This document shows, in pieces, positions 4,293 through 37,438 of a stretch of DNA of 64,000 bases (position 1 is the first letter of the stretch; each line of letters begins with the position of its first letter). The translations under genes were made by a program, and so were the position numbers. Source of the stretch: Bacteroidaceae bacterium (GTDB lineage: Bacteria > Bacteroidota > Bacteroidia > Bacteroidales > Bacteroidaceae); the NCBI GenBank assembly GCA_963654235.1, contig CAVJZR010000001.1:5049-69048 (forward strand), given 5' to 3'. The notes beneath the pieces are model-generated. The model was not told the DNA's origin. It was given only the letters and a program-made list of their open reading frames with translations, and did not search any database.

Positions 4293-7055
4293 ATGTCCAA
4301 ACTTCTACTCATCGATGCATACGCACTGATCTTCCGATCCTACTATGCCTTGATCCGCTCACCCCGAATCAACTCCAAGGGGCAGAACACCTCTGCCGTG
4401 ATGGGGTTCTGTAACACCTTGCAGGAAGTGCTCCGCACGATGAATCCCACCCATGTAGGTGTGGCGTTCGACCACGGCAAGACCTTCCGTCATGAGGCAT
4501 TCCCCGCCTATAAGGCACAGCGCGACGCCACTCCGGAGGATATCAAAGCCTCCGTACCTATCATTCAGAATATCCTCTCAGCTCTACATATACCCATCTA
4601 TCAGATCGATGGATTCGAGGCAGATGACATCATCGGCACCCTTGCCACCCAAGCCGGCGCGCAGGGCATCGACACCTTCATGCTCACACCCGACAAGGAC
4701 TACGCCCAACTGGTGGGTCCGCATGTGTATATGTACAAGCCAGGCTTCCGCGGAGGCTATGACACCTTAGGCGAGGCAGAGGTCACGGCTAAGTATGGCA
4801 TCGCGTCCACGGCTCAGGTCATTGACCTCCTTGCCCTCATGGGCGACTCGTCAGACAATTACCCCGGCTGTCCGGGCGTGGGAGAGAAGACCGCCGTCAA
4901 ACTGATCAACACCTATGGCAGCGTGGAAGGACTCCTCGCCCACACCACCGAGCTCAAAGGTAAGATGCGCGAGAAGGTGGAGACGGCTGCGGACGATATC
5001 CGGATGTCCTACTACCTTGCCACCATCCGTCGCGATGTACCCGTTGAGCTCAACCTCGATGAGATGCAACGCACCGAGCCCGATGCCGACCAACTGCGTT
5101 CACTGTTCGCCGAACTCGAGTTTAAAACGCTCTTGAGCAAGTTTGTTAACAACCCTGAAAAACCCAAAAAACTTGCTAATACCGAGCCCGACCTCTTCTC
5201 ACAATTCATTGACGAGAACCAAGAAACGCCAAAAACGTCAAGTTTTGAGACGCTTTCTACCACCCCACACACCTACCATCTCGTTGTGTCAGAGGAAGAT
5301 AAGCGTCGCCTTTGTGATTTTTTATTGACAAAGCAAATCCTTTCTTTAGACACAGAGACCACTTCTACGCACCCGATGGACGCCGAACTGGTGGGTTTGA
5401 GCTTCGCCGTGAGCGAACATGAGGCGTGGTACGTGCCCGTGAGCGCCAATCGTGAAGAAGCCTTAAAAACTGTTGCGATATTCAAACCAGCCTACGAGAG
5501 CACTGCCATCCTCAAGGTGGGGCAGAATATCAAGTATGACATCGAGGTGCTAAGCCAATATGATGTGCAGGTGAGCGGCACCCTGTTTGACACGATGCTC
5601 GCCCATTACATCATCCAACCCGAGCTCCATCACAACATGGACTACCTCGCTGAGGTGTACCTCGGCTATCAGACGGTGCACATCGACGAGCTGATTGGTC
5701 CGAAGGGAAAGCAGCAACGCTCCATGCGCGACTTGTCACCCGAGGCGGTGTACGAATACGCGTGCGAGGACGCCGACATCACCTTGCAACTATACCATTG
5801 CCTGCTACCCAAACTGAAAGAGGTCAATGGCGAAGACCTTTTTTGGAAAATAGAGATGCCCCTCGTCCCCGTGTTGGTGGATATGGAGCGCAGTGGCGTA
5901 CGACTAGATACGAACGCGCTGAAGGATACCTCTGCCGGCTTCACCCGACGGCTAAAGGAATACGAACAGATGATCTACGAAGAGGCGGGCGAGACGTTTA
6001 ACATCTCTAGCCCGAAGCAGGTGGGTGAGATCCTCTTCGGGAAGATGCACCTTGTGGACAAACCCAAGAAGACCCGCACGGGACAGTATGTCACCAGCGA
6101 GGAGGTGCTCCAGTCGCTCAGCGCCGCCCACCCCATCGTGGCGCATATCCTTGCTTACCGCGGACTGAAGAAGCTCCTATCCACATACATCGACGCCCTA
6201 CCCCGTCTGATCAATCCCCGCACAGGACATATCCACACATCGTTCAACCAAGCCGTGACTGCCACGGGGCGTCTCTCATCGAGCGATCCCAACCTGCAGA
6301 ATATCCCTGTGCGCGACGATGATGGCAAGGAGATCCGCCGTTGCTTCATCCCCGATGAAGGCCAACTGTTCTTCTCGGCTGATTATTCGCAGATAGAGCT
6401 CCGTATCATGGCGCATCTCAGTGGTGACGAGAACATGATTGAGGCGTTCCGTGAGGGCATCGATATCCACCGCGCCACGGCTGCGAAGATATGGAAAGTG
6501 GGGCTCGATGAGGTCACGGACGCCCAGCGAAAGAAAGCCAAACAAGCCAACTTCGGTATCATCTACGGCATCACGACATATGGTCTAGCCCAGCGCATGG
6601 GCATCCCCAACGGTGAGGCGCGCGCGTTGATAGACGATTATTTTGCCACCTTCCCCAAGGTGAAAGCCTATATGGAACAGGCCAAGGAAGAGGCTCGCCA
6701 GCACGGATATGCCACCACGCTGTTCGGGCGCCGCAGATATCTACCTGACATCCAGTCGCGCAACGCTACCGTGCGTGGATTTGCGGAGCGCAATGCCATC
6801 AACGCACCTATCCAGGGGTCAGAAGCTGACATCATCAAGGTGGCAATGATACGCATCCATCAGCGTTTCCAGACCGAAGGCATCCAGTCGAAGATGATTC
6901 TTCAGGTGCATGACGAGCTCAATTTCTCGGTACTCCCCGATGAGAAAGAACAGGTTCAACGCATCGTAACCGAAGAGATGCAAGCCGCCTACCAGCTCTC
7001 CGTACCCCTCCTAGCAGATGCCGGATGGGGGCACAACTGGCTCGAAGCGCATTAA
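4293..7055 (+). CDS. polA: DNA polymerase I
   Basis: 920 aa. 5'-nuclease N-terminus, 3'-5' exonuclease region (LSLDTETTS) and family A polymerase motifs (DYSQIELR, QVHDEL). Confidence 0.96.
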   Translation: MSKLLLIDAYALIFRSYYALIRSPRINSKGQNTSAVMGFCNTLQEVLRTMNPTHVGVAFDHGKTFRHEAFPAYKAQRDATPEDIKASVPIIQNILSALHIPIYQIDGFEADDIIGTLATQAGAQGIDTFMLTPDKDYAQLVGPHVYMYKPGFRGGYDTLGEAEVTAKYGIASTAQVIDLLALMGDSSDNYPGCPGVGEKTAVKLINTYGSVEGLLAHTTELKGKMREKVETAADDIRMSYYLATIRRDVPVELNLDEMQRTEPDADQLRSLFAELEFKTLLSKFVNNPEKPKKLANTEPDLFSQFIDENQETPKTSSFETLSTTPHTYHLVVSEEDKRRLCDFLLTKQILSLDTETTSTHPMDAELVGLSFAVSEHEAWYVPVSANREEALKTVAIFKPAYESTAILKVGQNIKYDIEVLSQYDVQVSGTLFDTMLAHYIIQPELHHNMDYLAEVYLGYQTVHIDELIGPKGKQQRSMRDLSPEAVYEYACEDADITLQLYHCLLPKLKEVNGEDLFWKIEMPLVPVLVDMERSGVRLDTNALKDTSAGFTRRLKEYEQMIYEEAGETFNISSPKQVGEILFGKMHLVDKPKKTRTGQYVTSEEVLQSLSAAHPIVAHILAYRGLKKLLSTYIDALPRLINPRTGHIHTSFNQAVTATGRLSSSDPNLQNIPVRDDDGKEIRRCFIPDEGQLFFSADYSQIELRIMAHLSGDENMIEAFREGIDIHRATAAKIWKVGLDEVTDAQRKKAKQANFGIIYGITTYGLAQRMGIPNGEARALIDDYFATFPKVKAYMEQAKEEARQHGYATTLFGRRRYLPDIQSRNATVRGFAERNAINAPIQGSEADIIKVAMIRIHQRFQTEGIQSKMILQVHDELNFSVLPDEKEQVQRIVTEEMQAAYQLSVPLLADAGWGHNWLEAH

Positions 7056-22653: not shown

Positions 22654-23490
22654 TTAATCGTTGGGATGGCGCATGCGCTGAGCCAGTTGAAGAAGGCTGG
22701 GAACAAGGATGCACACAGAGAAGAGGATGCCAAGCCACATCGTGCGGTGGCTGCCATGGAAGAGATCGATGAGTTTGCCATCGGCCATCTGAGGCATAAG
22801 AGCAAACATCAGATAAGCCACGCTGTTGTTGACCCAGTGAACAATGATGCCGGGGACGATGCTTCCTGTACGATAATACATCCAACCAAGGATCAGACCG
22901 ATGAGGAACGCATGGACGCCTTGAGCGAAGTTGAGGTGGATAACGCCGAAGATCAGGGCAGAGATGGCTATCGCCACCCAATGACGACGAGCGCCCGTAA
23001 GGTGTAACAGCACACGCAGGACACCACCACGGAAGACCATCTCTTCAGCTATCGGGGCTAGGACGCCAATGGCAATGTATCCCCACGACTCTTTCATGAT
23101 GCTCTGATAGAGGTTTTGCATATTGGGATCAACGTGCATCTGCATACGTTCGTAGAGCCATTCTAGCGGTAAGATGGTGCCTAGAGCGAGCAACGCTGCC
23201 CAACACAGCACGCCCCAAGGACGCGAGCGGAGGTAGGTGCGGGTGAGCGGAGACCAATGGAGACGGGCAAAGAGGAGAATGGTGAGCAAACTCGAGATCA
23301 CGGTGGTGCCCGCCAAGAGCGCACCTAGTTTGCCTTCTTGTAACTGTAAAAGGATCTGTTGGTAGGTGGTATGCTCCACAAAGGAGTAGACGAAGCTGGC
23401 TGCGAGTTCCACCACAAACTGGATCAGCGCAAAGGTGATGACGAAAAGGATGACATCGAGGATGCCCGTCTTGAGTGTATATTGCTTCAT
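22654..23490 (-). CDS. CPBP-family (CAAX) intramembrane metalloprotease
   Basis: 278 aa polytopic protein with EEMVFRG, FGVIHL and HWVNN motifs. Confidence 0.8.
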   Translation of the reverse strand: MKQYTLKTGILDVILFVITFALIQFVVELAASFVYSFVEHTTYQQILLQLQEGKLGALLAGTTVISSLLTILLFARLHWSPLTRTYLRSRPWGVLCWAALLALGTILPLEWLYERMQMHVDPNMQNLYQSIMKESWGYIAIGVLAPIAEEMVFRGGVLRVLLHLTGARRHWVAIAISALIFGVIHLNFAQGVHAFLIGLILGWMYYRTGSIVPGIIVHWVNNSVAYLMFALMPQMADGKLIDLFHGSHRTMWLGILFSVCILVPSLLQLAQRMRHPND

Positions 23491-24652: not shown

Positions 24653-24726
24653 GGACTTGTAGCTCAGTTGGTTAGAGCAACAGACTCATAATCTGGAGGT
24701 CCTAGGTTCAAGCCCTAGCTGGTCCA
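24653..24726 (+). tRNA. tRNA with CAT anticodon (elongator Met or lysidine-modified Ile2; not resolved)
   Basis: Hand-folded cloverleaf: GGACTTG/TA/GCTC-AGTTGGTTA-GAGC/A/ACAGA-CTCATAA-TCTGG/AGGTC/CTAGG-TTCAAGC-CCTAG/CTGGTCC-A. One T-T mismatch in the acceptor stem. TActTTTG box about 30 nt upstream. Confidence 0.88.
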
Positions 24727-24732
24727 CATACT

Positions 24733-24922: not shown

Positions 24923-24986
24923 AATGTAAATGATAAAGCAGAAGGAGCTACATTGCTGTAACTCCTTCTGCTTTATCATTTACATT
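24923..24986 (-). terminator. 25-bp perfect inverted repeat downstream of the RiPP-operon OMP gene
   Basis: AATGTAAATGATAAAGCAGAAGGAG (24923-24947) and its exact reverse complement (24962-24986), with a 14-nt loop. About 35 nt past the stop at 25022. Confidence 0.7.
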
Positions 24987-25021: not shown

Positions 25022-27280
25022 TCAGAGAGAGATGCCCTTCTCTTGGCTCTTTATCTTGTTCTCATCAATATTGATCTTGCTTTTCTTATTCTTACGCATG
25101 GTCCATCGAACGGTCATGCGAAGTTCTCGGTTCGAATTGACAACATGACTGATACGGTCATATCCATCGACATGGTAGTGCTGATCGTATTTGGTCTTAC
25201 CAAATGTCTGGCTGCTACCGAGAATGAAGATAAGGTCTGGAGTGATGTTATAAGAAACATAGACGGCGCTAGAATATGGACCTCTATAACTTGTTTCTGC
25301 ATAAGGAGTATAGGACTTGTTCTGATAAGAAATATCGCTCTCGACATGGAAGCCCTTATAATTCCACATAACGTAAGCGGACAAGCTAAAATACTTCTTA
25401 CACTTCTCACCTAGATATTTGATTAACCCATATTTGGCTGAAGCCGAAAAGTCCAACGTCTTATAGCTATACGTAGCCGTTTGCGAAACCGAAAAGCCAT
25501 GATAGCTGCCATAGTTCTTATAAGTGGAGTAATAAATGCCTTTGTCGTAATAAGAATAAGGGAGTATGAGGTCCTTTGAATAAACATAATCTACGGACGT
25601 GGAGGAACTGAATCCTGAAACATATATGTATTCCTTAAGACTCAATGAATGGGTTCGCTCTGGAACAAGCAGAGGATTACCACTTGAGAATATCAACGAA
25701 TCGGTAGAAGTGTTGTATGGATTCAACTTATCTATAGCTGGTTGTGAATTGGTCAGTTTATATTCTAACGACGTTTCGGATATTCCTTTTTCATAAGAGA
25801 TGTCCGCTGATATATTAGGACGCAAATACGAGTTCTTTACACCTGCAGAATTGAGGTGCATATAGTCGGCTCCTGCAGACAAAACAGAAGAGAAATCGCC
25901 CAACGACATAGACAAGGCTGTATAGAAGTATTCGTTTAAACTTTTAAACTTAAACTGGTTGGCCAAGCTCTCCTGCTTAATTCTATTAGTGGAGTAGTCG
26001 GTAGCGTTTCCGAAATCTAAAGAAAAGACTTTGCTTATCTCCCACGACAAATCCAGTTCTTGACTTAAGAAATGCCTTTTGGTTGAAAACATATCATCGT
26101 CTTGTATATCAGCTTTGCCTAACTGTTGAACCTCACTATTTGTTTGACTGTTATTATTAATCGTGTATCTAGCAGTGTTCTCTAAGGATAAATTCTTACC
26201 AAACTGATGCTTGTAATACAAAGATGATGTATAGACATGAGACCTAACAACCGACTTCTCATAGGAAGAATACTTCAACGAGTCAGAATTGGCATTGACG
26301 TGCCAACCTTTACTATCTGCGTCAGATGTGCTATGATTGTCATCGCCTTGGAAGCTAACAATGAAATAATCTTTCTTTGTAGGTCTCCACTTGATCATGG
26401 TTTGGTAGCTAAAATCATGGTTTCTGTCGTTTATGGCAGAATTATAATCTCTACTATAATCCGTTGATCGAATGTTTTTACTGGAGGAAGCATGATTATA
26501 ACGTTTCCACGTAGGACCTAGAGTAACATAAAGCGACAACTTGCTATTGCCAACTTCAAAGGTCGGGCCCGTCCATCCTGATTTCCAAGGAAATGTGTTG
26601 CCATACCCTAAGCGTAGATATGTGTAGAGAGATTTGGTCTGTTTCAGATGAATATTAACAATACGCTGGGCACCAGACCTTATGTATTTGGAACTAACGA
26701 CATCTATCACCTCTACCGATTCAATCCTAGACGGAGATATGGGAGAAAGTCCGGTATTCATCTTTGCTCCATCTACTAGGAACAAGATGCTTTTGCCATC
26801 ATCAGAACTTAGGCCTTCATTTATATAATCACTCCGCAACTTCGGAATTTCTTGCAACGCAATGTATGGGTTATTGCTTTTTACAGCATCTTCTGAAAGA
26901 AAGTAGATATGACCATAAGGAGTCTTTATTGGACGCCTATGTCCAACAACCGTAACCGAATCCATGCTTATGGTTGTTTCTTTCATTATGCCGTAATAGT
27001 TATTTTTTTCATGCAAGTCTATACTATCAGTAAGGGTCTCATAACCCAAGCAATGTACAAATAGGGCCACCTTTGCGTCTGGTAAATCATCAATAGCATA
27101 AGAACCCTCACCATCACTACCTCCTATTGCGATCACAGAATCATTAAGCGAAACGATGATTGTTGCCTTTTCAATAGGAGTAAAGTTGTTAGTCAGAATC
27201 TTACCTGACAACTTTATCGATTGGGAAAAAGACAATGCACAATATAAAACACAAAAGACTAGAAATATTGTTCGCTTCAT
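25022..27280 (-). CDS. Outer-membrane beta-barrel protein, TonB-dependent-receptor-like (CarboxypepD_reg-like N-domain + plug-like region + barrel)
   Basis: 752 aa. Signal peptide; N-terminal KLSGKILTNNFTPIEKATIIV...GSYAIDDL fold-type motif; plug-like ALQEIPKL...LVDGAKM...IESVEVI; long alternating beta-strand-like C-terminal region. The ATG is 1 nt after the maturase stop. Confidence 0.7.
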   Translation of the reverse strand: MKRTIFLVFCVLYCALSFSQSIKLSGKILTNNFTPIEKATIIVSLNDSVIAIGGSDGEGSYAIDDLPDAKVALFVHCLGYETLTDSIDLHEKNNYYGIMKETTISMDSVTVVGHRRPIKTPYGHIYFLSEDAVKSNNPYIALQEIPKLRSDYINEGLSSDDGKSILFLVDGAKMNTGLSPISPSRIESVEVIDVVSSKYIRSGAQRIVNIHLKQTKSLYTYLRLGYGNTFPWKSGWTGPTFEVGNSKLSLYVTLGPTWKRYNHASSSKNIRSTDYSRDYNSAINDRNHDFSYQTMIKWRPTKKDYFIVSFQGDDNHSTSDADSKGWHVNANSDSLKYSSYEKSVVRSHVYTSSLYYKHQFGKNLSLENTARYTINNNSQTNSEVQQLGKADIQDDDMFSTKRHFLSQELDLSWEISKVFSLDFGNATDYSTNRIKQESLANQFKFKSLNEYFYTALSMSLGDFSSVLSAGADYMHLNSAGVKNSYLRPNISADISYEKGISETSLEYKLTNSQPAIDKLNPYNTSTDSLIFSSGNPLLVPERTHSLSLKEYIYVSGFSSSTSVDYVYSKDLILPYSYYDKGIYYSTYKNYGSYHGFSVSQTATYSYKTLDFSASAKYGLIKYLGEKCKKYFSLSAYVMWNYKGFHVESDISYQNKSYTPYAETSYRGPYSSAVYVSYNITPDLIFILGSSQTFGKTKYDQHYHVDGYDRISHVVNSNRELRMTVRWTMRKNKKSKINIDENKIKSQEKGISL

Positions 27281-27281
27281 A

Positions 27282-28550
27282 TTATTCTCTTTTAAGTTTA
27301 TTTGTAACCAAATACCTGAAGTATTCCTGTTTGCTTATATTAAGCGACTTCAGATAACATTCTGTATGACCAACTTTAATTTGATTGGGGCAAGGCCCAT
27401 AACAAGAAGGAAACCTTCTGCATGATAAACATTCATCTGGACTTTTCGTGGAGTAGTCATACGCCAGTTTTGATTCATTCCATATTATTTGCCCCGTCTG
27501 AGTATCCAATTTACCATAAGCATTTGTTTGATTAAAATCTGATATAGTTGTACATTTGAAGACTTGCCCGTCATAATTTATAACTGCTTCATTATAGCGT
27601 TCACCAAAACACAATTTTCCTTGAGTATAGTAATCAACACTAAAACCTTCTCCATTGAGTTTTTCAATTGTACTATTGACTATTTCATTATTAATATTTT
27701 CGTGATTTACTTGCCAAACTCTTTTTACAATAATAACAGTTCTACGCCTGTCTAATTCTTTGATTCTAGCCAATATCTCGTCAAAACTTTCTAACGTATT
27801 CTCATCAAAGTTGATTCTAAGGAACAACATAGATGAAGGAATCTTTTCTTGAATCAACTTCATATTCTGAAAAGTCAGAGTAAATAAATCTTTACTCCTA
27901 TCCTTTGTATGCTTTACCTTATTATGTTGTTCTTTATTACCATCAATAGTTATTTGAAATTGACATGATAAATCCGAAAGAAAATCTATGTTCTTTGCAT
28001 CTAGCAAGGTTCCGTTAGTGGTAAAATCAAGATATAACGAAATGCCTCTCTTGATGCAAACATTCTTCGCTCTTTCTATAATATCCTTTATTGCAGGATA
28101 GTTGTAGAAAGGTTCTCCTCCAAAGAAAGATAATTTTAATGTAGAGAAAGGCTCGTTATTACACTTCCAAATGATATGCTTTATAATACCATCAGACACT
28201 TCTTTGCTTATTTTGCTACCTTTATACCTTCGCTCGTAACAATACCAACAAGATAAGTTGCAGTCAAGCGTTGGATTGACAATTAAATGGTAAAGGGATT
28301 TATCATATAGTTCGGTGCTTCTTCTAAATTGTACTATATCTTTTTCATTATAATCATCCTCTACTATGAAATCCATTCTTTTAAGAGAATCCCATAAATC
28401 CTGATATTGCTCTACAGAGCTATTAGGTATGTTTTCATAAAATTCATGACCTTCATGGTCTAAGATAACAATTGCGCCATTAAAATAATTAATGTGTAAG
28501 AAAACGCCATCTTGTATCTCGCAACTATCTTGGTAATATATTTTTCTCAT
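27282..28550 (-). CDS. Radical SAM / SPASM-domain peptide maturase
   Basis: 422 aa. CX3CX2C at DCNLSCWYC. SPASM pattern C-x13-G-x4-C (CFGERYNEAVINYDGQVFKC) and CX2CX5CX3C (CLSCRRFPSCYGPC) plus a trailing Cys. Confidence 0.9.
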   Translation of the reverse strand: MRKIYYQDSCEIQDGVFLHINYFNGAIVILDHEGHEFYENIPNSSVEQYQDLWDSLKRMDFIVEDDYNEKDIVQFRRSTELYDKSLYHLIVNPTLDCNLSCWYCYERRYKGSKISKEVSDGIIKHIIWKCNNEPFSTLKLSFFGGEPFYNYPAIKDIIERAKNVCIKRGISLYLDFTTNGTLLDAKNIDFLSDLSCQFQITIDGNKEQHNKVKHTKDRSKDLFTLTFQNMKLIQEKIPSSMLFLRINFDENTLESFDEILARIKELDRRRTVIIVKRVWQVNHENINNEIVNSTIEKLNGEGFSVDYYTQGKLCFGERYNEAVINYDGQVFKCTTISDFNQTNAYGKLDTQTGQIIWNESKLAYDYSTKSPDECLSCRRFPSCYGPCPNQIKVGHTECYLKSLNISKQEYFRYLVTNKLKRE

Positions 28551-28579
28551 ATAATTGGAAGCGTGTGTTCTTTTATTTC

Positions 28580-28622
28580 AAAAAGTATTTCTCCTTTTTG
28601 TATGGTAGAAGAAATACTTTTT
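28580..28622 (-). terminator. Intra-operon hairpin between precursor and maturase genes (candidate partial terminator/attenuator)
   Basis: 13-bp stem AAAAAGTATTTCT (28580-28592) / AGAAATACTTTTT (28610-28622) with a 17-nt loop, in the 81-nt gap between the two genes. Confidence 0.5.
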
Positions 28623-28631
28623 GAATTGCTA

Positions 28632-28910
28632 TTAATAACACGTTTTATTGTCGTTGACAGCAGTACACATAGGCGTATTATTGATGCTGGAACATTCCTT
28701 GGCACTATTAATAGCTGAACAAGTATTGTTGTGATTAATGACTGAGCATATATCCTTGTTATTTATAACATCACAATGCTTTGCGTCATTACTTGCCGTA
28801 CACTTATTACCATTATTAATTTGATCATAAAGAGATTCTCCACCTCTTATAGCCAACATATGCTTCTTGGTCAATTCTTCTAATTCTTTTGCGTTGAATA
28901 TTTGCTTCAT
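28632..28910 (-). CDS. RiPP precursor peptide: double-glycine leader + Cys-x3-Asn nonapeptide-repeat core
   Basis: 92 aa. The leader MKQIFNAKELEELTKKHMLAIRGG has hydrophobic residues at -4, -7, -12 and -15. Core Cys at residues 37, 46, 55, 64, 73, 82 and 91 (exact period 9). Asn at Cys+4 in six repeats. Sits immediately upstream of the rSAM/SPASM gene. Confidence 0.8.
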   Translation of the reverse strand: MKQIFNAKELEELTKKHMLAIRGGESLYDQINNGNKCTASNDAKHCDVINNKDICSVINHNNTCSAINSAKECSSINNTPMCTAVNDNKTCY

Positions 28911-28979
28911 AAACTAATGTATCGGTTAACCGCCACCGAAAGCTTTAAATTATTAATAATATAAAGATGTATACTGGTG

Positions 28980-28987
28980 CAAAGTTA
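28980..28987 (-). promoter_or_regulatory. -7 promoter box (TAACTTTG on the minus strand) for the precursor operon
   Basis: Matches the Bacteroidota TAnnTTTG consensus about 70 nt upstream of the precursor ATG. Confidence 0.5.
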
Positions 28988-29125: not shown

Positions 29126-30691
29126 TTAGAAGTTTTCTATGAATTCTCTTGCCGAACCATCGCTTCTTCCTAATCCTAGTTTAGGTTTTATTAGATACAG
29201 CTTCTGTCTGACAGAACTTTCTTCAATGTGGTAAATCTTCGCTATTCTATGTATAGGTAATCTTAGCCTTATAAGCATAAGAAAACGAATATCTTTTTGT
29301 GTAAGGGAAGGGAAACTCTCTTTAAGTCTTTCTACAAAATGGTTGTCTGTATTATCTAGATAAGCTATAAGTTCGTCCCATTCTTCTGTGTTCAACACAA
29401 TCCGCTTCTCTTCTCCTTCATTCATTCTCTTGCTCTCCGCTTTTAACTTATTCACAACATCTACATTCTTCAAAAGAATATTACGAACGTTTACTATCTG
29501 CGATTCTTTGATTTCTACTTCCTTTTTGCATTTTACCATCTTCTCTTCTGTAGTTCTCTTTCTCACATAAAATAGTCTTAGGACAAGCAACATAACACCC
29601 CATGAAAGTATTAATAGTATACTTATAAAGATTATGACCCCTGAGTGCTCTCTTTGTGTTACGGAAGTCTTTTCTAAAAGGATTTGGCTATCTTTGGTTG
29701 CACGTTCCTTTGTGTATTTCCTATTTATATATAATTCTGTGGAATCAGCATAATCATCTACTTGTTTATAGTTCTTTTCAGACAATGCGATGAATTGTCG
29801 TAATGAGAATAAGATATCACCGTAATCAGCATAATCTTCCTGTTTAATATGAGAGAGCAAAGACTTTGCAGCCCCTAACGAGTCTGCTTGACAAAAAGCA
29901 TTTTCCAAAGACAATAAAGAGATAATATCCTTTGATGGGTTGTATGAGAAGGATTCTTTTGCCATCTTCACGGCAGAACCTTCATTACCACACATTCGAT
30001 AGAACACTGATAGGTGATGAAAAACATCAGAGATGGCAGAAGAATCATTGATTTCTTTAGCATATTCGAGAATGTTTCTCGCCAACAAGATGCTTTTCTC
30101 TCTTTCGCTAGGCTTGGAAGCGTAACATTGAGCTAAGTTCAAGACCATATATACCTTATTAGCATCACGATTGCCTTTGATATGATCATATACATCGCAA
30201 GCTAACTGCGCATAGTTTATTGCTTTATCAGCATCATAACCTCTGAGAACAACTGACGTTTGAACGTAACACTTGCTTTGCGTCAAATAATCGTGGTTTC
30301 GTTTGGCGGCAGTAGCAGAACGACTAAAAAGATTCAGCGCTTTTGAGGTATTACCATTCAAAGCATAGTGCTTGCCCATATAGTACATGCTTTTGGCATA
30401 AAGAGAATCCTCTGACCTATCTTTATAATAAGCATAAGCGACGAGAAGAAGCGAATCGTTGTTGCTTTCTATCCCTAACTTATCTTGAGCCATTGTATAT
30501 ACAAGCGCATACATTGCCATATTGCTATCCGAAAGTCGGGTTTGATCAACTTGGTTTAGCAATGCAATTGCACTATCAGGCTTTTGTTCTACCAAAGATA
30601 ACGCGGCCGAGATGCGTGTGTTGTTTTGAGCACAAGACATTATAACAGCAAGCCCAAGTGCTAAAGCCAACATCTTGTTTAAACTTTTCAT
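29126..30691 (-). CDS. Membrane-anchored regulator: lipoprotein signal, TPR-like domain, one TM helix, C-terminal LuxR/GerE-like HTH
   Basis: 521 aa. LAVIMSC lipobox-like signal, TM VIIFISILLILSWGVMLLVLRLF, C-terminal LTQKDIRFLMLIRLRLPIHRIAKIYHIEESSVRQKLYLIKPKLG. Minus-strand TAATTTTG box at 30720-30727. Confidence 0.7.
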   Translation of the reverse strand: MKSLNKMLALALGLAVIMSCAQNNTRISAALSLVEQKPDSAIALLNQVDQTRLSDSNMAMYALVYTMAQDKLGIESNNDSLLLVAYAYYKDRSEDSLYAKSMYYMGKHYALNGNTSKALNLFSRSATAAKRNHDYLTQSKCYVQTSVVLRGYDADKAINYAQLACDVYDHIKGNRDANKVYMVLNLAQCYASKPSEREKSILLARNILEYAKEINDSSAISDVFHHLSVFYRMCGNEGSAVKMAKESFSYNPSKDIISLLSLENAFCQADSLGAAKSLLSHIKQEDYADYGDILFSLRQFIALSEKNYKQVDDYADSTELYINRKYTKERATKDSQILLEKTSVTQREHSGVIIFISILLILSWGVMLLVLRLFYVRKRTTEEKMVKCKKEVEIKESQIVNVRNILLKNVDVVNKLKAESKRMNEGEEKRIVLNTEEWDELIAYLDNTDNHFVERLKESFPSLTQKDIRFLMLIRLRLPIHRIAKIYHIEESSVRQKLYLIKPKLGLGRSDGSAREFIENF

Positions 30692-30910
30692 CTTATATTT
30701 TTTCTTGGATACGCTGCTGCAAAATTACATCTAAAATCTTAATTATTCTCATTTCGTTTCTGTTTTTTAGATTCTTTCGTTTTAAAAACGCACCTCGATT
30801 CGGGACAAGAATGCCTTGAAGCCTCCTAGCAAGAGCATTATACGTCTGCGGCACTTATTCTTTCGAGTGTTCATATCATCATTCTCACCCTCTGAAAGCG
30901 CCCGATGCTA

Positions 30911-31202: not shown

Positions 31203-33749
31203 CTAGATTGAACAACTGATTTTACAAAGTATTGCACGCGGGCGAAGCGTATTGATGGTAAACGTCCGAAGATAGTCACTTATTACTGTTCGTTCATAAT
31301 GGATTGTTCCAAAAACATTGGTGCATGAAAGCCCCAGTTCATAGCTTTTGGTACGATAGCTTACGTTTACATCACAGAAATAATTGTTACTGATCGTTGC
31401 GTCATTGCTATGGTAATATTCATTTCTCCATTCTATTTGCCATTTGCCTGGCATGAAGATCACGTCAACGGAATGGCAGAAATAGTTCAAGGCAGAACGG
31501 CTGATAGCTTGATCGGGAGATTTCTGAACAATATTGTTCCATCTGCTTTTCCCTTCTACGGATAGCCATGTGCTCGGATGCCACAATAGTTCCAACCCCA
31601 TATAGCCTTTGCGTTGTTTCATCAGCGTTTTATTTCCGCTTATCATAAGGTAGTACTGATACCAACTGATGTTACCTGTTAGAGCTAACGATAGCTTTCC
31701 CCAACCTATCGACTTAGCAATTCGACCGTTAAGGATGTAAGAGCTGGTATTACCTTCGTTCGTCGTCGCTCTTCTAACGTAGATTCCATCCATATACGAA
31801 CTGCTATAAAGTATATTGTTGCTAGAACGGTTATAAGAGAAAGACGTACTAGCAGAAAAGCCATGAACAGGATTGGTATATTGCCAATTGTTGCTCACAA
31901 GATGAACGTTTGAACTTACAAGTCGTCCAAGCCCCTCCACCAATGTAATATAATCAGTATAGATGGGTGACGACGAAATGGCATCCAACGAACCGGGACT
32001 CCATATATAAAGGTAATCAAGATGCGTTTTGAGATATGGACTTAAGCTATACTCCAACGACACTGTTGGTTCAAAAGCTATGTGTTGTTTGTTGGCTTCA
32101 TTGAAACATCTGCTATTCCAACTTAGTTTTGCTATGGCGCTTAAGCTAAGCAATCTTGACTTATAGGAAAATGATGGACTGGCATAAAGTTTCAGCAAGC
32201 TATATCTGTCTTTGTTACTAGTATAATGGTTTTCTATGCCTTGATGATAGTTGTCATATTCTTCGCCAATGGTCCATGCGATGTAAGATCTAGCAACCTT
32301 ATGTCTAAAATACGCAGACGTTTTCACAGATAGGTGATGAATTCCAAGATATTCCCCACTTCCATTCATCAATAGGACGTAGCCCGGAAGGAAGCTGTAC
32401 CTTAACTTGGTGTTAAAGGAAACACTATGCCCACCATAAAGATTTCTGATAAGCCGAAGGGTGTTAGCAATATATCGTTTTCTTGGTTCTACGTCTTGTT
32501 TTACATCTGAGCCATTCAGCAAGGTTGCTCCTCGTGAGTAGTTAAAGTCCATGTATCCTTTAAGACTATTGCTCAGATATGTTTTATCCGAGTTCAACTT
32601 ATAAAGCAGTTCGCCTTTCCATTCATTGCGTTTGCTGAATGCATTTCTGCTTTCAGAGATCATCGCTCCGTCCGATGTGGCATCTAGGAAAGTAGTCTGT
32701 CTGAACATATTCTGTTGAGTCTTATCTAAGAGTCCATCTAGTTGAAATCGAAGGTCAGCATTATCGGTTGGTTTGAAAAGCCAGTTGGTTGCAAAAACAC
32801 GCGAATCATTGAATGCGTACCTTTTCATCTCTAGCGATGGCGCTTGAATGATGATAGAGCTAAGACGTTCTCCGTCATCGGTCATCAAGTCGTTAGCTGA
32901 CAAATCGGTTATTTCATGTCCGATGTCCTTACCCGTGTTATTGGTCTTATACATGCTTATGCTTTGGCGTTTATGAGCAAAAAGCATGGCCATAAGTCTT
33001 GCATCACGAAGCCATTCGCCTTTGCCTTGCAACGTATGTCCACCTGCGACATCAAGCACCCCTTGCCAAACATTCTTAGCATCGTCTTTCAACACAATAT
33101 TCAATGCGGCTTGATCACTAAAACTAACATCACGCAGCGCGCGTACTGGTTGATGATTATTAAGCACTTGTACCTTACTCACTTTGGTAGCATCGATATT
33201 TTCGCTTGCTAAAGAGTATTTGCCGCCTAGCAAGTCCATGCCTTCAATATAGAATTTGTTTATCGGTTGATCATTGACAACAATCTGCCCGCTCGGTCTC
33301 ACTTCGACACCTGGTATTTTGGAAAGCACATCAGCAATACTACGATCTTGCTTCTGCATATACGCTGAGACAAGATAAGTAACCGTGTCACCCTCTATCT
33401 TTGCCCTGTCTGGCATGACCTTTACTTCCTTTAACTCGAATGCTTTTTCATGAAGAATGTATGTAGCGCCTTCTTTGAATTTATCCAAAGGCAATGTAAT
33501 ATCCGCATAGCCCATCTTCCGAAGCCGAATAGATTGTGTCTGCTTCTTTTCTGGACAAACCACCATGAAGCTTCCGTCTTGTTTGCTTTGCGCATAAGCT
33601 ACAGGACAATTGTTGTAAAGCAAGGCTATCGTTACACCCGAAAGAGCATTGCCTATCGTATCTACAATGACGCCACGATATCTTTGCGCAGAGCTAAGGG
33701 TGACTCCGAGCACATTTAAGAAAAATACGATGGCAAATAATCTTCTCAT
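31203..33749 (-). CDS. Outer-membrane beta-barrel protein, TonB-dependent-receptor-like (second copy of the CarboxypepD_reg/plug/barrel architecture)
   Basis: Start set at MRRLFAIVFFLNVLGV (signal peptide); the ORF extends to 33782. YRGVIVDTIGNALSGVTIAL N-domain and a plug-like region (SIADVLSKIPGVEV...FYIEGMDLLGGKY). Confidence 0.7.
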   Translation of the reverse strand: MRRLFAIVFFLNVLGVTLSSAQRYRGVIVDTIGNALSGVTIALLYNNCPVAYAQSKQDGSFMVVCPEKKQTQSIRLRKMGYADITLPLDKFKEGATYILHEKAFELKEVKVMPDRAKIEGDTVTYLVSAYMQKQDRSIADVLSKIPGVEVRPSGQIVVNDQPINKFYIEGMDLLGGKYSLASENIDATKVSKVQVLNNHQPVRALRDVSFSDQAALNIVLKDDAKNVWQGVLDVAGGHTLQGKGEWLRDARLMAMLFAHKRQSISMYKTNNTGKDIGHEITDLSANDLMTDDGERLSSIIIQAPSLEMKRYAFNDSRVFATNWLFKPTDNADLRFQLDGLLDKTQQNMFRQTTFLDATSDGAMISESRNAFSKRNEWKGELLYKLNSDKTYLSNSLKGYMDFNYSRGATLLNGSDVKQDVEPRKRYIANTLRLIRNLYGGHSVSFNTKLRYSFLPGYVLLMNGSGEYLGIHHLSVKTSAYFRHKVARSYIAWTIGEEYDNYHQGIENHYTSNKDRYSLLKLYASPSFSYKSRLLSLSAIAKLSWNSRCFNEANKQHIAFEPTVSLEYSLSPYLKTHLDYLYIWSPGSLDAISSSPIYTDYITLVEGLGRLVSSNVHLVSNNWQYTNPVHGFSASTSFSYNRSSNNILYSSSYMDGIYVRRATTNEGNTSSYILNGRIAKSIGWGKLSLALTGNISWYQYYLMISGNKTLMKQRKGYMGLELLWHPSTWLSVEGKSRWNNIVQKSPDQAISRSALNYFCHSVDVIFMPGKWQIEWRNEYYHSNDATISNNYFCDVNVSYRTKSYELGLSCTNVFGTIHYERTVISDYLRTFTINTLRPRAILCKISCSI

Positions 33750-33760
33750 GCAGTAAGCGT

Positions 33761-34564
33761 TTATGGTTTCTCTATAAGGCACGCTTCCTTATTTCGAGGC
33801 GATTTGCGGTTTCCTTGAGCATCATACGTAGTGCCACGAAATCCCCAAACTCGTTGCATAGCTGCATCCTCGTCTTTAGCCTCAAGGGTAAGAAGGTTGG
33901 CAAGCTGTTTAGCATCACAATGCTTGTATTCTTTCTTTATCGGTTCGAACGTGCTACGCTTGTTGTTACCTTCTATCCCAATAGCGTCAAAGACAAAGTC
34001 CCCTTCTATATCCTTCGCATAAAGAATAAGTCCTGGCAAACCACATAGCTTCCAAGGCCCGTCATCAATAGCTATATCTGGCGTATAGTAAACTATCCAT
34101 GTACGTCCTCGATACGTCGTTTCTGCTTTATAAGCAGCATATCCCAATATAATGGTATCGCTATCTATCAAACGCCATTCAAACTGTGGCATTGGTTCTT
34201 CGTACTTAAAATCATCCCATACCTTGCTGATGTAAGTAAGTGTGCCAGTAGAAGGATAGTTTTTAAACACCTCGATATTAGTGTTCTGCCGTAGTAAATC
34301 CATCTTTTTAAGAACGCTTATAACGTCATAACCGCTATAACCTAAGCGTAACAGACTATCCTTAACTACCTCTCCACGATAATTATCTAGACAATAAAAA
34401 CAAGAAACATCGTCTGAAATATCAAGAACGTTAGTACAAACCATTGGGCTCGCATCGTTTTTGTATTTATGGAAAGTAGTGCTGTACGTCACGCTTATCC
34501 CCCAACATACATTGTAGGAGAAAAGAATCATAAAGAGGAATAATATATTAATTATCTTTGGCAT
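33761..34564 (-). CDS. GLPGLI family protein
   Basis: 267 aa with a signal peptide. Contains the family-defining motif (WKLCGLPGLILYA). Confidence 0.8.
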   Translation of the reverse strand: MPKIINILFLFMILFSYNVCWGISVTYSTTFHKYKNDASPMVCTNVLDISDDVSCFYCLDNYRGEVVKDSLLRLGYSGYDVISVLKKMDLLRQNTNIEVFKNYPSTGTLTYISKVWDDFKYEEPMPQFEWRLIDSDTIILGYAAYKAETTYRGRTWIVYYTPDIAIDDGPWKLCGLPGLILYAKDIEGDFVFDAIGIEGNNKRSTFEPIKKEYKHCDAKQLANLLTLEAKDEDAAMQRVWGFRGTTYDAQGNRKSPRNKEACLIEKP

Positions 34565-34635
34565 ATGCTAATTGAATAAAAGCATTCCACGTTCGTCACG
34601 TTTTTACAAGAGACAAACGTGGAATGCATTCTTAT

Positions 34636-34851
34636 TTAGAACATTCCATATTCTGGATGTTCAGAATACCAAGCCTGATAGATACTAATAATCTGTTCGT
34701 TTGTAAGTACACAATCAAACACTATGTAATCTCCATTTTCAAACACTACCACAGTTCTTTGCGGCTCATCTCTATTGGTAGCATTAGCCGTTGAAAAAGG
34801 ATTGCCCAAAAGTGCTAATGCTAAACCAAGTGTTAATATAAATCTTTTCAT
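34636..34851 (-). CDS. Small secreted hypothetical protein (72 aa from the MKRFILTLGLALALLG start)
   Basis: Clear signal peptide at the internal Met; the longer listed ORF (to 34929) overlaps the upstream gene. Confidence 0.4.
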   Translation of the reverse strand: MKRFILTLGLALALLGNPFSTANATNRDEPQRTVVVFENGDYIVFDCVLTNEQIISIYQAWYSEHPEYGMF

Positions 34852-34909
34852 TGTTTTAACTTTTTTAAAAATGTAATTGTTATAGCGTTGTGCACTTCGC
34901 TTGTTTTGT

Positions 34910-35284
34910 TCATAAGTCCAAACAACCATAGTAGTTGATGTTTTCTTTGTTTACTTGTACATAATACCTACCTTTAAACAAGGTTGGCAAAACAACATAT
35001 TCTTGAGAAACATCAACGTCTAAAGAGCAGACGACTTCTCCCTCGGTAGTTACAATCTCTAGATGACTTGGTTTCAACGTTTCATTAAGCCAAATCCGTT
35101 CACCATCATAATACACATATGCATCATTTGCGTTGGGCATCCGTTGAAGTGGCTTGCTAGACTTTGTATCATCGACGTAATAAGTACGCATTACTATTAC
35201 GTAAATGTCACCATTCTGTCTAGTTTGGGCTTGTAATAGGAAGATTGGTGCAAATAGTATAACCAACAATACTTTCCTTATCAT
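34910..35284 (-). CDS. Small secreted protein; the C-terminal part resembles a T9SS-CTD/DUF3244-type beta-sandwich (tentative)
   Basis: 124 aa. Signal peptide MIRKVLLVILFAPIFLLQAQ. C-terminal LPTLFKGRYYVQVNKENINYYGCLDL. Minus-strand TATTTTTG box about 35 nt upstream. Confidence 0.45.
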   Translation of the reverse strand: MIRKVLLVILFAPIFLLQAQTRQNGDIYVIVMRTYYVDDTKSSKPLQRMPNANDAYVYYDGERIWLNETLKPSHLEIVTTEGEVVCSLDVDVSQEYVVLPTLFKGRYYVQVNKENINYYGCLDL

Positions 35285-35455
35285 CCTTTTATCTTTATCA
35301 TTATATGTTATTATATTGCAAAAATAAAGATAAAAGATTAAGCGGTAAACTTTAATGAGTACACTTAGTACACTTTACGCAAAAGAAGAGTTCTACTTCT
35401 TGTCAGCAAATCCGTGTATCTTAGACAACTAACTCTAGAAATACACATTGTACAC

Positions 35456-37177
35456 CTACAATCCTGTTTTATAAATATTAGAAGTAAATGTTTTAGAGCC
35501 CATATCCCCAAACAATGTTTTGTTTAGTTTTGCACGAAGATTCGTCATTCTCTGCTTAGAAATATCAAGTAATACGGAAATTTCAGATGGTATAAAGTGT
35601 AATCTTGTGAGGATACACACTTTTCTTTCCTGTTCTGTTAATGAAAAGTTTTTGTCGTCAATAAAGTCGTAAAATTTAAACAATGACACCTTTACAATAT
35701 CGTAAAGTTCTTCCCATTCCATATTCGTTGGCCGTTTTATAGTTGAAGCATACTTATGAAATTGTAATACCATCGTATGCTCCATAAGATTTCTTTCAGC
35801 CTCTTTATCAGAAGCGAGAAACTTTCCTGTGTACGATGATAATAGGGTTGAAAGCCTGTTGATTTGATCTTCCTTGTCCTTCTTACTTTTTTCAACATCC
35901 ACTTCCAATTTCCGTAGTTCTTCCAATGCCGCATAATATTGCTGAAGTATCTCTATGTATTTTAAATTATAGATTCTCAGTTCTTGTTTTCGCTTCTTCT
36001 TCCTACTATTGATCAAGAAGCTAGTAGCTACAACTATTACAATCAATAATAATATTAGTAAGATGCAGTAAAAATGATATTCTTTCGCTTCAGCAGCTTT
36101 TTTATCAGCTACTTTTTGCTTTTCTGAGTAATTATAAAGGGATTGCGCTTTGCTAATCTCATCGGCAGAATGAATCACATTGGCAGAATCATTAATAATA
36201 GTAAAGAGCTTTGCGTATTTTACTACAGAATCGATCTCATTCAATTGGGAATAGTCTTCCATGAGTCCTCTATACGCATTTTCTTGACTGTTTAGGTCTG
36301 TAGAACAAGAGGCTAGCTTTCTATAATAGTATAAAGAAGAATCTAGATTGAGCGTTTCTTTATAATAGCGTCCCATATAATAATAGAAGAACTCATGTCC
36401 TTGTGTTAGCTCTCCATTACTAAAAAGCCCAGAATGAAGTATGTACTCAGTAATCTGCTTCTTTGCTAAATTCAGATGTTTGTTCTCTATATTATTATCA
36501 ATTTGGATACCAAGCGATGCGGCAGCATAGTCCTTTCTGCCTATTTTCTTATATTCATTATATGTATCCTTCGCCACCTTCAAGGCTTTGGATTTATTTC
36601 CCCACAAAAGATATGCGCCTACACATCGCTCCTTTAACTGAATAGCCATTAATGTATCACTACACATGAGAGCATATTTTCGTGCCATATTCCAATAATA
36701 CATTTCTTCCTGAGGCATTCTTTGTTCATGAAACAAAGATGCTATTTGCCCATATATTCTAGGAAGTTCTTTTGAAGGACTTACTGTATCTGCAACCTCC
36801 ACAGCTTTCAAATAAAACTTAATTGCAGAAGGACAATCACCTTTATCACGATAGACGCATCCCATCATATAGGATGCATTCATTGTTTCTATTTCGCTAC
36901 CATTCGAATCATAATAACGTAGTACTTCATCCATGAAAGATATCGTATCCATCGGGATATATGCTTTATTCATTGCTTCTGCGTATATCAGTAGGTATTT
37001 CATTCGGTTTCGACGACTGAAGTTCTTTAGACTACTCCATTTGTTCTTTAGGATGACGTATGCTGAATCAGGTTGCTTTTCTAATAAGGAAGAAGCTTCT
37101 ACTATCACCTTAGGTGTTGTAGGATTCTCGCAAGAAACCATAAGAATAAAAAACAAAAAATATAGTATGCGTTTCAT
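35456..37177 (-). CDS. Membrane-anchored regulator, paralog of 29126..30691 (lipoprotein signal, TPR-like, TM, LuxR/GerE-like HTH)
   Basis: 573 aa. FILMVSC signal, TM FYCILLILLLIVIVVATSFLI, coiled-coil region, C-terminal LTEQERKVCILTRLHFIPSEISVLLDISKQRMTNLRAKLNKTLFG. Confidence 0.7.
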   Translation of the reverse strand: MKRILYFLFFILMVSCENPTTPKVIVEASSLLEKQPDSAYVILKNKWSSLKNFSRRNRMKYLLIYAEAMNKAYIPMDTISFMDEVLRYYDSNGSEIETMNASYMMGCVYRDKGDCPSAIKFYLKAVEVADTVSPSKELPRIYGQIASLFHEQRMPQEEMYYWNMARKYALMCSDTLMAIQLKERCVGAYLLWGNKSKALKVAKDTYNEYKKIGRKDYAAASLGIQIDNNIENKHLNLAKKQITEYILHSGLFSNGELTQGHEFFYYYMGRYYKETLNLDSSLYYYRKLASCSTDLNSQENAYRGLMEDYSQLNEIDSVVKYAKLFTIINDSANVIHSADEISKAQSLYNYSEKQKVADKKAAEAKEYHFYCILLILLLIVIVVATSFLINSRKKKRKQELRIYNLKYIEILQQYYAALEELRKLEVDVEKSKKDKEDQINRLSTLLSSYTGKFLASDKEAERNLMEHTMVLQFHKYASTIKRPTNMEWEELYDIVKVSLFKFYDFIDDKNFSLTEQERKVCILTRLHFIPSEISVLLDISKQRMTNLRAKLNKTLFGDMGSKTFTSNIYKTGL

Positions 37178-37438
37178 TGATTCATTTTATAGTTCTATAA
37201 TGCCGAATTGCAAAAATAGCAAATTTCATTCAAACACATACAATGATGCAGACATATATTTCTAAGAACTAAATGCGAGTAATATTTTATAACCATGACT
37301 ATCTTAAACCAAATAGATTGCGCCCTTTTCTATATAGGAAAGTTTCATCACATCCAAAAACAAACTATCAGTGTATGAGCTATTTTGAAAAGAAAATGTT
37401 ATCTTTGCAAGAGAGTCTCGCTTAAAGCGAAGAACGCT

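Follow-up and report, generated by a model that had tools for sequence, protein, structure and literature searches.

How a cysteine-rich peptide encoded by a three-gene operon of a Bacteroidaceae bacterium is modified, and by which route it leaves the cell, is the question raised by a stretch of 64,000 nucleotides (GenBank assembly GCA_963654235.1, contig CAVJZR010000001.1, forward-strand positions 5,049 to 69,048), hereafter the window, whose first letter is position 1 in all coordinates given here. The operon contains a gene encoding a small precursor with a double-glycine leader, a gene encoding a radical S-adenosylmethionine (rSAM) enzyme with a SPASM domain and a gene encoding an outer-membrane protein (OMP). 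It belongs to the well-known class of rSAM/SPASM clusters for peptides that are synthesized by the ribosome and modified post-translationally (RiPPs), and is widespread and tractable, not a near-unique oddity. On balance, the cluster probably belongs, as a copy that looks functional, to a large Bacteroidales RiPP family without a name, in which the maturase would install thioether rings and the product would exit through the OMP with energy provided by TonB.

Organization of the operon

The cluster is located on the minus strand and shows the following elements, from the promoter to the terminator:

28980-28987, minus strand: Bacteroidetes-type -7 promoter box TAACTTTG, 69 nt 5' of the precursor ATG
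28632-28910, minus strand: open reading frame (ORF) of the precursor peptide, 92 aa (from the list of ORFs and the minus-strand sequence itself)
28577-28625, minus strand: RNA hairpin with a 19-bp stem in the gap between precursor and maturase genes (folding against shuffled sequences)
27282-28550, minus strand: ORF of the rSAM/SPASM maturase, 422 aa (from the list of ORFs and the minus-strand sequence itself)
25022-27280, minus strand: ORF of an OMP resembling TonB-dependent transporters (TBDTs), 752 aa (from the list of ORFs and the minus-strand sequence itself)
24923-24947 and 24962-24986, minus strand: terminator, a perfect 25-bp inverted repeat with a 14-nt loop, 35 nt past the OMP stop codon

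The precursor and maturase genes are separated by 81 nt, and the maturase and OMP genes by 1 nt. The original prediction, made from the letters and their ORFs, had described a promoter box at 28980-28987, a 92-aa gene, an 81-nt gap with a hairpin, a 422-aa gene, a 1-nt junction, a 752-aa gene and a perfect 25-bp hairpin closing the unit; all these elements were found at their coordinates, and its reading was sustained, namely that the precursor, maturase and OMP genes form one transcription unit for a peptide modified by an rSAM enzyme, in a Bacteroidales host that resembles Prevotella.

The TAnnTTTG motif is found 52 times in the window, with 36.8 +/- 6.4 expected, and because this enrichment is mild, a single copy is weak evidence by itself. 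The low-GC island that contains the operon shows four minus-strand boxes (28987, 30727, 35326 and 37218), each 27-69 nt 5' of an ORF start, and they therefore mark off four transcription units. A sigma-70 promoter scan (29 sites versus 23.7 expected) was uninformative and was discarded, because the sigma-70 consensus is not that of Bacteroidetes. The hairpin in the 81-nt gap has a dG of -22.4 kcal/mol (z = -6.5), and an equal fold was obtained in 0 of 200 shuffles. A comparable hairpin of unrelated sequence is located at the same precursor-maturase junction in about 19 of 23 related loci, and this recurrence suggests attenuation or stabilisation in favour of the precursor; the element is likely an intra-operon attenuator or a transcript stabiliser. 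The predicted unit is a sigma-AB-type promoter, followed by the precursor-maturase-OMP operon and a strong terminator.

The maturase

The maturase shows the rSAM motif C97-x3-C101-x2-C104 (CX3CX2C, residues 97-104) and a SPASM region with seven cysteines (C314-x13-G328-x4-C333, C374-x2-C377-x5-C383-x3-C387 and C398). All of them are invariant in an alignment of 25 homologues with 39-74% identity, in agreement with the CX3CX2C motif and complete SPASM cysteine pattern first read from the single sequence. Two extra cysteines outside both motifs, C165 and C196, are likewise invariant in this alignment. Seven-cysteine SPASM domains are also present in CteB, QhpD and Tte1186 (PMC10352776), and the pattern fits an auxiliary cluster in which one site is left open for a thiolate of the substrate. 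Pfam assigns the protein to Radical_SAM (PF04055; 54.6 bits, cut-off 29.5) and Fer4_12 (49.6 bits), and several of its homologues exceed the Pfam SPASM cut-off. The 14 top-scoring NCBIfam families are all peptide maturases, among them TIGR04463 (118 bits), geopeptide (116), Clo7bot (115), CefB (113) and PapB (97), and RiPP maturase models score 89-118 bits. Relatives are abundant (1367 at E<=1e-10) and carry generic names only, such as "radical SAM protein [uncultured Prevotella sp.]".

An AlphaFold2 (AF2) model built from 25 sequences (pLDDT 88.9) shows strands at 7-13, 16-21 and 26-31 and helices at 32-39, 50-58 and 69-81, so that the modelled N-terminal domain (residues 7-81) has the topology of a RiPP recognition element (RRE). 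In a Foldseek search of this model, CteB was the first match and aligned over the full length, including the RRE-like domain (E 1e-17, TM-score 0.63-0.67), followed by TigE, SuiB and anaerobic sulfatase-maturating enzyme (anSME); a sequence profile search also gave CteB as the best match. By sequence and model, the protein is predicted to be an RRE-containing RiPP-type rSAM/SPASM enzyme outside any curated family.

Grouping with anaerobic sulfatase maturases had been named in the original prediction as one of the results that would overturn a RiPP assignment. The probability is negligible that the enzyme is anSME-like or matures a cofactor and has the small ORF and the OMP gene as chance neighbours. 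anSME does appear among both sequence and fold matches, but its models score 41-58 bits against cut-offs of 349-441 (TIGR03942, 58.1 versus 349) and rank below the 14 RiPP maturase families, and its fold match covers the core only, whereas CteB matches with the RRE-like domain. No sulfatase gene is located nearby, and the adjacency of precursor and OMP genes is kept in dozens of loci across families. The higher RiPP maturase scores, the RRE-like domain and the full-length CteB match rule out an anSME grouping, and together with the conserved neighbours they effectively refute the whole alternative.

The precursor peptide and its family

Residues 1-24 of the precursor, as read from the sequence, form a double-glycine leader of the type processed by peptidase-containing ABC transporters (PCATs), with hydrophobic residues at -4, -7, -12 and -15 and then GG (...L10..L13....M18..I21RGG24). 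In the precursor family, the GG is invariant and the methionine equivalent to M18 (Met-7) is at least 90% conserved. The core has 68 aa and contains seven cysteines at an exact period of nine residues, each with an asparagine at -5, and only a tyrosine and the stop codon follow the last cysteine. Peptides of 55-98 aa with a GG leader and three to eight evenly spaced cysteines are encoded 5' of the maturase gene in at least 27 of the closer loci. Statistics were obtained from 28 precursors with 128 cysteines: consecutive cysteines are spaced by 9 (59 times) or 10 residues (37 times), and asparagine is found at -5 of 95% of the cysteines, including the first of each core. Past the last cysteine, the asparagine at +4 is mostly absent. 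Cysteine and asparagine are the only invariant core residues and are paired one to one. Because there is one Asn(-5) per cysteine, at a constant distance and with a variable period, N-x4-C is suggested as the most economical repeat unit, with three to eight units in tandem.

The precursor has no NCBIfam or Pfam match even at E<=10 and no match to bacteriocin-signal hidden Markov models (HMMs). Its profile search retrieved 28 clusters only, all of them labelled "hypothetical protein", and the public collection has no gene call for this ORF of the window. Sister maturase subfamilies (L013, L015, L016, L018, L035 and L055-L079, in the numbering of the related loci) show very different precursors, although the rSAM-OMP-PCAT gene order is kept: one type has a short core ending in ...NEGNGCNVEGALNKGTGCGC, and another has a long leader (..FIESLP.. 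and then GG) and an irregular Cys-rich core.

The outer-membrane protein

The OMP belongs to the two Pfam families that the original prediction had put forward for it, PF14905 (OMP_b-brl_3; 47.1 bits, cut-off 27) and PF13715 (CarbopepD_reg_2; 36.7 bits, cut-off 32.2), both above their gathering cut-offs. Since a sequence search of the PDB gave no relative, structure prediction was needed. The AF2 model (60 sequences, pLDDT 84.5) contains a signal peptide, a CarboxypepD_reg beta-sandwich (residues 22-99), a disordered linker, a plug-like alpha/beta domain (117-212) and a large barrel (219-730). The top 50 PDB matches of this model in Foldseek are all TBDTs, including PirA, OprC, PhuR, ChuA, Cir, FepA and BtuB (E down to 3e-19, probability 1.0, TM-score 0.43-0.62). 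The linker before the plug shows a family consensus LDEVxVxA (SMDSVTVVG in the window), which we take to be TonB-box-like by eye, from known TonB boxes. The protein is thus predicted to have the TBDT fold with a plug; the signal peptide and beta-barrel described initially are both present, although the generic barrel label missed this fold.

RiPP-linked OMPs (that of the window, residues ~731-752, 25022-25090, and those of L002-L047) show a hydrophilic tail of 20-25 aa past the last barrel strand. The ends of these tails are conserved per subfamily: ExGISL in the clade of the window (...EKGISL in the window itself), and EKIKL, KxPxM or EINRL elsewhere. The tail, disordered in the model (pLDDT <50), may be a periplasmic docking tail. 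Some OMP homologues (P0136 and P0143, 845-851 aa) contain an extra STN domain (PF07660, secretin/TonB N-terminal), which is the signalling domain of TonB-dependent transducers.

Related loci and exporter genes

A scan of species-representative genomes (one per species) and metagenome contigs gave 80 related loci; the contigs are often cut, and counts of absent genes are approximate. The hosts are Prevotella/Segatella (including S. copri and S. bryantii), Muribaculaceae (including Lepagella muris), Parabacteroides, Bacteroides, Porphyromonas levii and Proteiniphilum. An OMP homologue is located directly 3' of the maturase gene, on the same strand, in 44 of the 47 close-family loci with enough sequence, with junctions mostly from -29 to +25 nt, and distant maturase subfamilies, whose precursors are quite different, show the maturase-OMP order as well. 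The OMP gene is followed, in about 26 related loci, by a gene encoding a PCAT of about 730 aa (Peptidase_C39, 112 bits; ABC_membrane; ABC_tran), and this by a gene encoding a short HlyD-type adaptor. The OMP stop codon and the PCAT start codon often overlap, as in an annotated Parabacteroides distasonis record, where the three genes are labelled "radical SAM protein", "outer membrane beta-barrel protein" and "peptidase domain-containing ABC transporter". A tblastn search of plasmids with the PCAT gave more than 5000 generic ABC matches and yielded one annotated Parabacteroides example.

The HlyD-like adaptors mostly have 156-167 aa (one has 246 aa), and their match to TIGR01843 is limited to its C-terminal part. 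The short form, encoded for example at L002:9112-9582 and L022:11855-12337 and in L016 and L028-L030, shows a transmembrane helix and a C-terminal beta domain, without the long coiled-coil hairpin. No TolC-type gene was found in any of the about 80 loci. A type I secretion-like tripartite exporter of ABC, HlyD and TolC components was considered and rejected, as there is no TolC-type gene and the adaptors are too short.

Many loci show, 5' of the precursor gene, a gene encoding a protein with tetratricopeptide repeats (TPR), a transmembrane helix and a domain of the helix-turn-helix (HTH) type, followed by a gene encoding a small secreted DUF3244 protein; others show a divergent two-component system. 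The DUF3244 (Ig-like) proteins are encoded, for example, at L008:5223-5570, L010:5121-5471, L022:5309-5674 and L044:5266-5631. The recurring gene order over the loci therefore gives the canonical locus, as read from the sequences, as regulator, DUF3244, precursor, rSAM, OMP, PCAT and short HlyD. The RiPP module of the window, without DUF3244, PCAT and HlyD genes, represents a sub-lineage. Its nearest relatives, L083 (OMP 97% identical) and L084 (63%), show the same layout, and about nine other loci are also PCAT-less, several of them with two tandem OMP genes. As L083, L084 and these loci share it, the PCAT-less layout is a recurrent variant and not a one-off truncation, and the variant of the window probably relies on an exporter encoded elsewhere. 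The initial description of an OMP in place of a protease/ABC exporter is correct for the window, which lacks both, but not for the family, where the OMP accompanies a C39 ABC transporter and a HlyD-type adaptor in about 26 loci. Tandem TBDT-like OMP genes 3' of the maturase gene were observed in L017, L042, L043, L044 and L084, mostly PCAT-less loci.

Probable upstream regulator and genomic island

Directly upstream of the RiPP unit there is a gene encoding a further candidate component, and a second module completes the island. The original prediction had taken account neither of these elements and the low-GC island nor of the N-x4-C pattern of the core. Their features are as follows:

29126-30691, minus strand: probable cluster regulator, 521 aa, directly upstream of the RiPP unit, with its own TAnnTTTG box at 30720-30727
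24653-24727, plus strand: tRNA-Met, lower border of the island
31203-37218, minus strand: second island module (paralogous regulator, two secreted proteins, GLPGLI protein and second OMP)
35456-37177, minus strand: paralogous TPR/LuxR-type regulator of the second module
33761-34564, minus strand: GLPGLI protein of the second module (TIGR01200, 141 bits)
31203-33782, minus strand: second TBDT-like OMP, 859 aa

The 521-aa protein contains a lipoprotein-type signal, a TPR region (Pfam TPR_12), one transmembrane helix (~352-371, from a transmembrane scan and the family alignment), a coiled coil and a C-terminal LuxR/GerE-type HTH. The HTH gave no significant Pfam match in a single-sequence search and is detected only by profile methods: hhalign gives a 92.7% probability against GerE, and the PDB profile matches are all LuxR-family HTH domains (StyR, VraR, DosR, NarL and GerE; E 0.002-0.3). 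The protein is a probable membrane-anchored TPR/LuxR-type regulator of the cluster, and its TPR domain is predicted to be periplasmic, from the signal peptide and the single transmembrane helix. Homologues are encoded 5' of the precursor gene in at least 12 related loci. The regulator weakly resembles BT_3442 and the DUF3244 protein weakly resembles BT_3441, the pair that heads a MACPF cluster of B. thetaiotaomicron (PMC2954219); the TPR/DUF3244 pair therefore has the appearance of a cassette of general use in Bacteroidales, set in front of secreted cargo.

The operon is located in a low-GC island of 12.5 kb (~24.8-37.3 kb; 32-44% GC versus ~52% in the flanks), bordered by tRNA-Met and ribF on one side and by genes encoding a pyridoxal-phosphate-dependent decarboxylase and ComEC on the other. 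Neither an integrase nor flanking direct repeats were found as a signature of integration. The second module also contains genes encoding secreted proteins of 124 aa (34910-35284) and 97 aa; the former occupies the DUF3244 position within the module and has no significant DUF3244 match. The two-module layout is also present in L083 and L084, and the second OMP of L083 is called as two pieces (305 and 541 aa). In the high-GC host DNA, 1.5 kb past the terminator and without link to the island, a gene encoding an Rce1/CPBP-type membrane protease (PF02517, 80 bits) is located at 22654-23490 on the minus strand. CPBP proteins are sometimes bacteriocin immunity factors.

Proposed pathway and alternative explanations

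In the pathway proposed here, the upstream membrane-anchored TPR/LuxR-type protein would control the operon, and the hairpin after the precursor gene would probably provide an excess of precursor mRNA. The maturase would bind the leader through its RRE and join the sulfur of each cysteine to a side-chain carbon of the asparagine five residues upstream, most likely by a beta-thioether as formed by NxxcB, which links a cysteine to an upstream asparagine via an auxiliary cluster-bound thiolate (PMC9389541). Seven rings of six residues each, in tandem and without overlap, would result, with a total mass change of about -14 Da. Cleavage after the GG and transfer to the periplasm would be carried out in trans by an ABC exporter with a C39 peptidase whose gene lies elsewhere in the genome. 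With energy from TonB, the TBDT-like OMP would then take the peptide over the outer membrane, in a two-step TolC-independent route like that of Oar for PopC. The product is probably an antagonistic or signalling peptide. For the outward role of the OMP, the chances appear about even. It is favoured because the gene is placed between those of the maturase and the PCAT with coupled junctions, because the cluster has no other outer-membrane route, and because the adaptor lacks the TolC-docking part; it is also favoured by analogy with the TBDT needed for PopC secretion in Myxococcus (PMC6434023) and with the export role that Makarova et al. predicted for PF14905 OMPs in Bacteroidetes graspetide loci (PMC8939145).

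Several points weigh against this pathway. TBDTs are canonically importers, and the Pfam Plug model matches the OMP with 18.3 bits, under its cut-off of 23.9. Neither PCAT nor HlyD genes were found in the 64-kb window by tblastn and HMM searches, so that export and leader removal depend on a gene outside it. The maturase scores 21.2 bits with the Pfam SPASM model (PF13186), marginally below the cut-off of 21.5, and reaches the cut-off of no curated NCBIfam family (340-600 bits for the best matches). The type and position of the cross-link are inferred from the sequence pattern, and the asparagine at +4 of the preceding cysteine, found for 96% of the non-terminal cysteines, is as conserved as that at -5; a C-x3-N pairing similar to the C-x3-D of PapB therefore remains for the internal units, inseparable from N-x4-C in cores of period 9.

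This last point bears on the chemistry, and a product other than a Cys-Asn beta-thioether, such as a sactionine (S-C-alpha), a gamma-thioether, C-x3-N rings or a non-thioether modification of asparagine or cysteine, is somewhat unlikely. Sactisynthases and ranthisynthases interleave, and rSAM/SPASM chemistry is unreadable from sequence (PMC10288494); the maturase lies far under all family cut-offs (TIGR04463, 117/525; PapB, 97/340), and its Foldseek matches TigE and SuiB form C-C and ether cross-links. By contrast, cysteine and asparagine are the sole invariant residues, in equal number, the seven-cysteine SPASM is like that of thioether enzymes, and the first cysteine of each core has an Asn(-5) with no earlier cysteine, which favours N-x4-C over C-x3-N. 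The direction of the OMP gives rise to the other main alternative, which we judge unlikely: the peptide would exit by another way, and the OMP would be an uptake receptor returning it to the periplasm, where the TPR domain of the regulator would sense it in an autoinduction loop; in a variant, the peptide would serve to scavenge and would be taken up again, like methanobactin through MbnT. The structural neighbours of the OMP are all importers, and it shows a plug and a TonB-box-like motif. It also stays with precursor and maturase in the PCAT-less loci (the window, L083, L084 and about nine others), and therefore the link between OMP and peptide is independent of the exporter. Regulators with a predicted periplasmic TPR sensor, or two-component systems, are found beside many loci, and the OMP gene is duplicated in tandem in L017, L042, L043 and L084. 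Against uptake, the OMP gene is inserted between those of maturase and PCAT, often with overlapping codons, as parts of one machine; apart from it, the clusters encode no exit over the outer membrane, and their HlyD is just a stub; the loci have neither a periplasmic binding protein nor an inner-membrane importer in conserved form; and the periplasmic orientation of the TPR domain is itself a prediction from the signal peptide and one transmembrane helix. A further-reaching proposal, a peptide-sensing circuit in which the secreted peptide is re-imported by the TBDT, bound by the TPR domain and signalled to the operon through the HTH, is unlikely, and so is a related one, in which a TonB-powered outward gate takes the place of TolC throughout Bacteroidales. 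Such a circuit, if true, would give diderms an equivalent of the RRNPP peptide quorum sensing of Gram-positive bacteria, built from a RiPP and a TBDT.

It is very improbable that the copy of the window is a decaying remnant which has lost PCAT, HlyD and DUF3244 and now gives no secreted product. Canonical loci do have the PCAT and HlyD genes that the window lacks, the cluster is placed in a foreign low-GC island, and the adjoining second OMP gene of L083 is apparently split in two. Nevertheless, the three ORFs are intact, all catalytic cysteines are present and the repeats keep a perfect register; neither the promoter box nor the attenuator hairpin nor the terminator has been lost, and the PCAT-less layout is kept in relatives with OMPs of 63-97% identity and in several other lineages; its conservation in diverged relatives argues for selection together with a trans-acting exporter.

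Relation to known systems

PapA/PapB (freyrasin) and CteA/CteB (thermocellin) resemble the window in an RRE-rSAM-SPASM maturase with seven SPASM cysteines encoded beside a Cys-rich precursor; CteB is the closest in both sequence and fold, and the six C-x3-D rings of freyrasin resemble the tandem, evenly spaced cysteine/acceptor units of the window. Unlike these ranthipeptides, the predicted acceptor of the window is an upstream asparagine at -5 and not Asp or Thr, the host is a diderm Bacteroidales, the operon contains a TBDT-like OMP gene, and the ranthipeptide HMMs score far below their cut-offs (PapB NF047865, 97.3 versus 340; SCIFF maturase TIGR03974, 73.8 versus 425). The streptococcal radical SAM RiPP NxxcA/NxxcB (PMC9389541) shares a conserved asparagine upstream of cysteine as the likely thioether acceptor, but it shows N-x2-C in one unit with shp/rgg regulation, whereas the family of the window shows N-x4-C in 3-8 tandem units with a GG leader. 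The original prediction had named the GG-Bacteroidales class of TIGRFAMs (TIGR04148/04149/04150), which is similar in its Bacteroidetes hosts, GG-leader precursors and adjacent rSAM/SPASM maturases. Membership was not borne out: the maturase scores 70.1 bits with TIGR04148 (cut-off 300), the peptide has no TIGR04149 match (E<=10), and neither a pseudo-rSAM nor a second rSAM-like ORF is present in the window, which thus represents a sibling family.

Bacteroidetes graspetide loci (ATP-grasp and SPASM) share the accessory set of PF14905 OMP, TPR proteins, PCAT and HlyD (PMC8939145); the family of the window differs in having no ATP-grasp ligase, another precursor type and an OMP that is near-obligate between maturase and PCAT. 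Oar of Myxococcus is likewise a TBDT-type protein proposed to act outward (PMC6434023), but its cargo PopC is a folded protease and not a RiPP, and for the OMP of the window the outward role is suggested by analogy. RiPP operons with their own TBDT are also represented by those of methanobactin (MbnA/MbnBC), in which MbnT imports the metal-loaded product; their maturation enzymes are unrelated, and the core of the window shows no sign of metal binding once its cysteines are cross-linked.

Biological significance

PF14905/TonB-linked OMPs in Bacteroidetes RiPP loci have been mentioned in passing (PMC8939145; PMC10352776), and in the graspetide loci they are accompanied by TPR proteins (PMC8939145). 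Single-rSAM loci are the commonest RiPP-like loci in Bacteroidales, some clusters containing a PCAT and an "OMP" without a fusion protein, and no modified peptide, either class I bacteriocin or RiPP, has been characterised from this order (PMC10352776). rSAM-modified RiPPs are the most abundant and largest uncharacterised class in human microbiomes, where most RiPP precursor families are uncharacterised (PMC11953309). In the literature, no report was found of the precursor family, its N-x4-C logic, its product or a tested role of the OMP, and there are bioinformatic mentions only, as is also the case for the function of DUF3244/BT3441-3442 and for links between TBDTs and RiPPs.

Members of the family, some of them in cultured strains, are found in Segatella copri, other Prevotella, Muribaculaceae, Parabacteroides and Bacteroides, and Bacteroidales dominate the gut. 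Cultured bacteria with the complete cassette include Lepagella muris NM04_E33 (L010), Segatella copri HF1825 (L028) and Parabacteroides distasonis (L082). The family offers tandem N-x4-C rings as a probable new thioether topology, a precursor/maturase pair that is defined and open to co-expression, and a genetic handle on the TolC-free passage of a peptide over a diderm outer membrane, either with a TBDT acting outward or with re-import by the producer. A TonB-powered outward TBDT gate replacing TolC for PCAT-exported peptides would, if true, be unprecedented for RiPPs and would extend throughout Bacteroidales, and either direction of the OMP would have consequences for how gut bacteria compete and signal.

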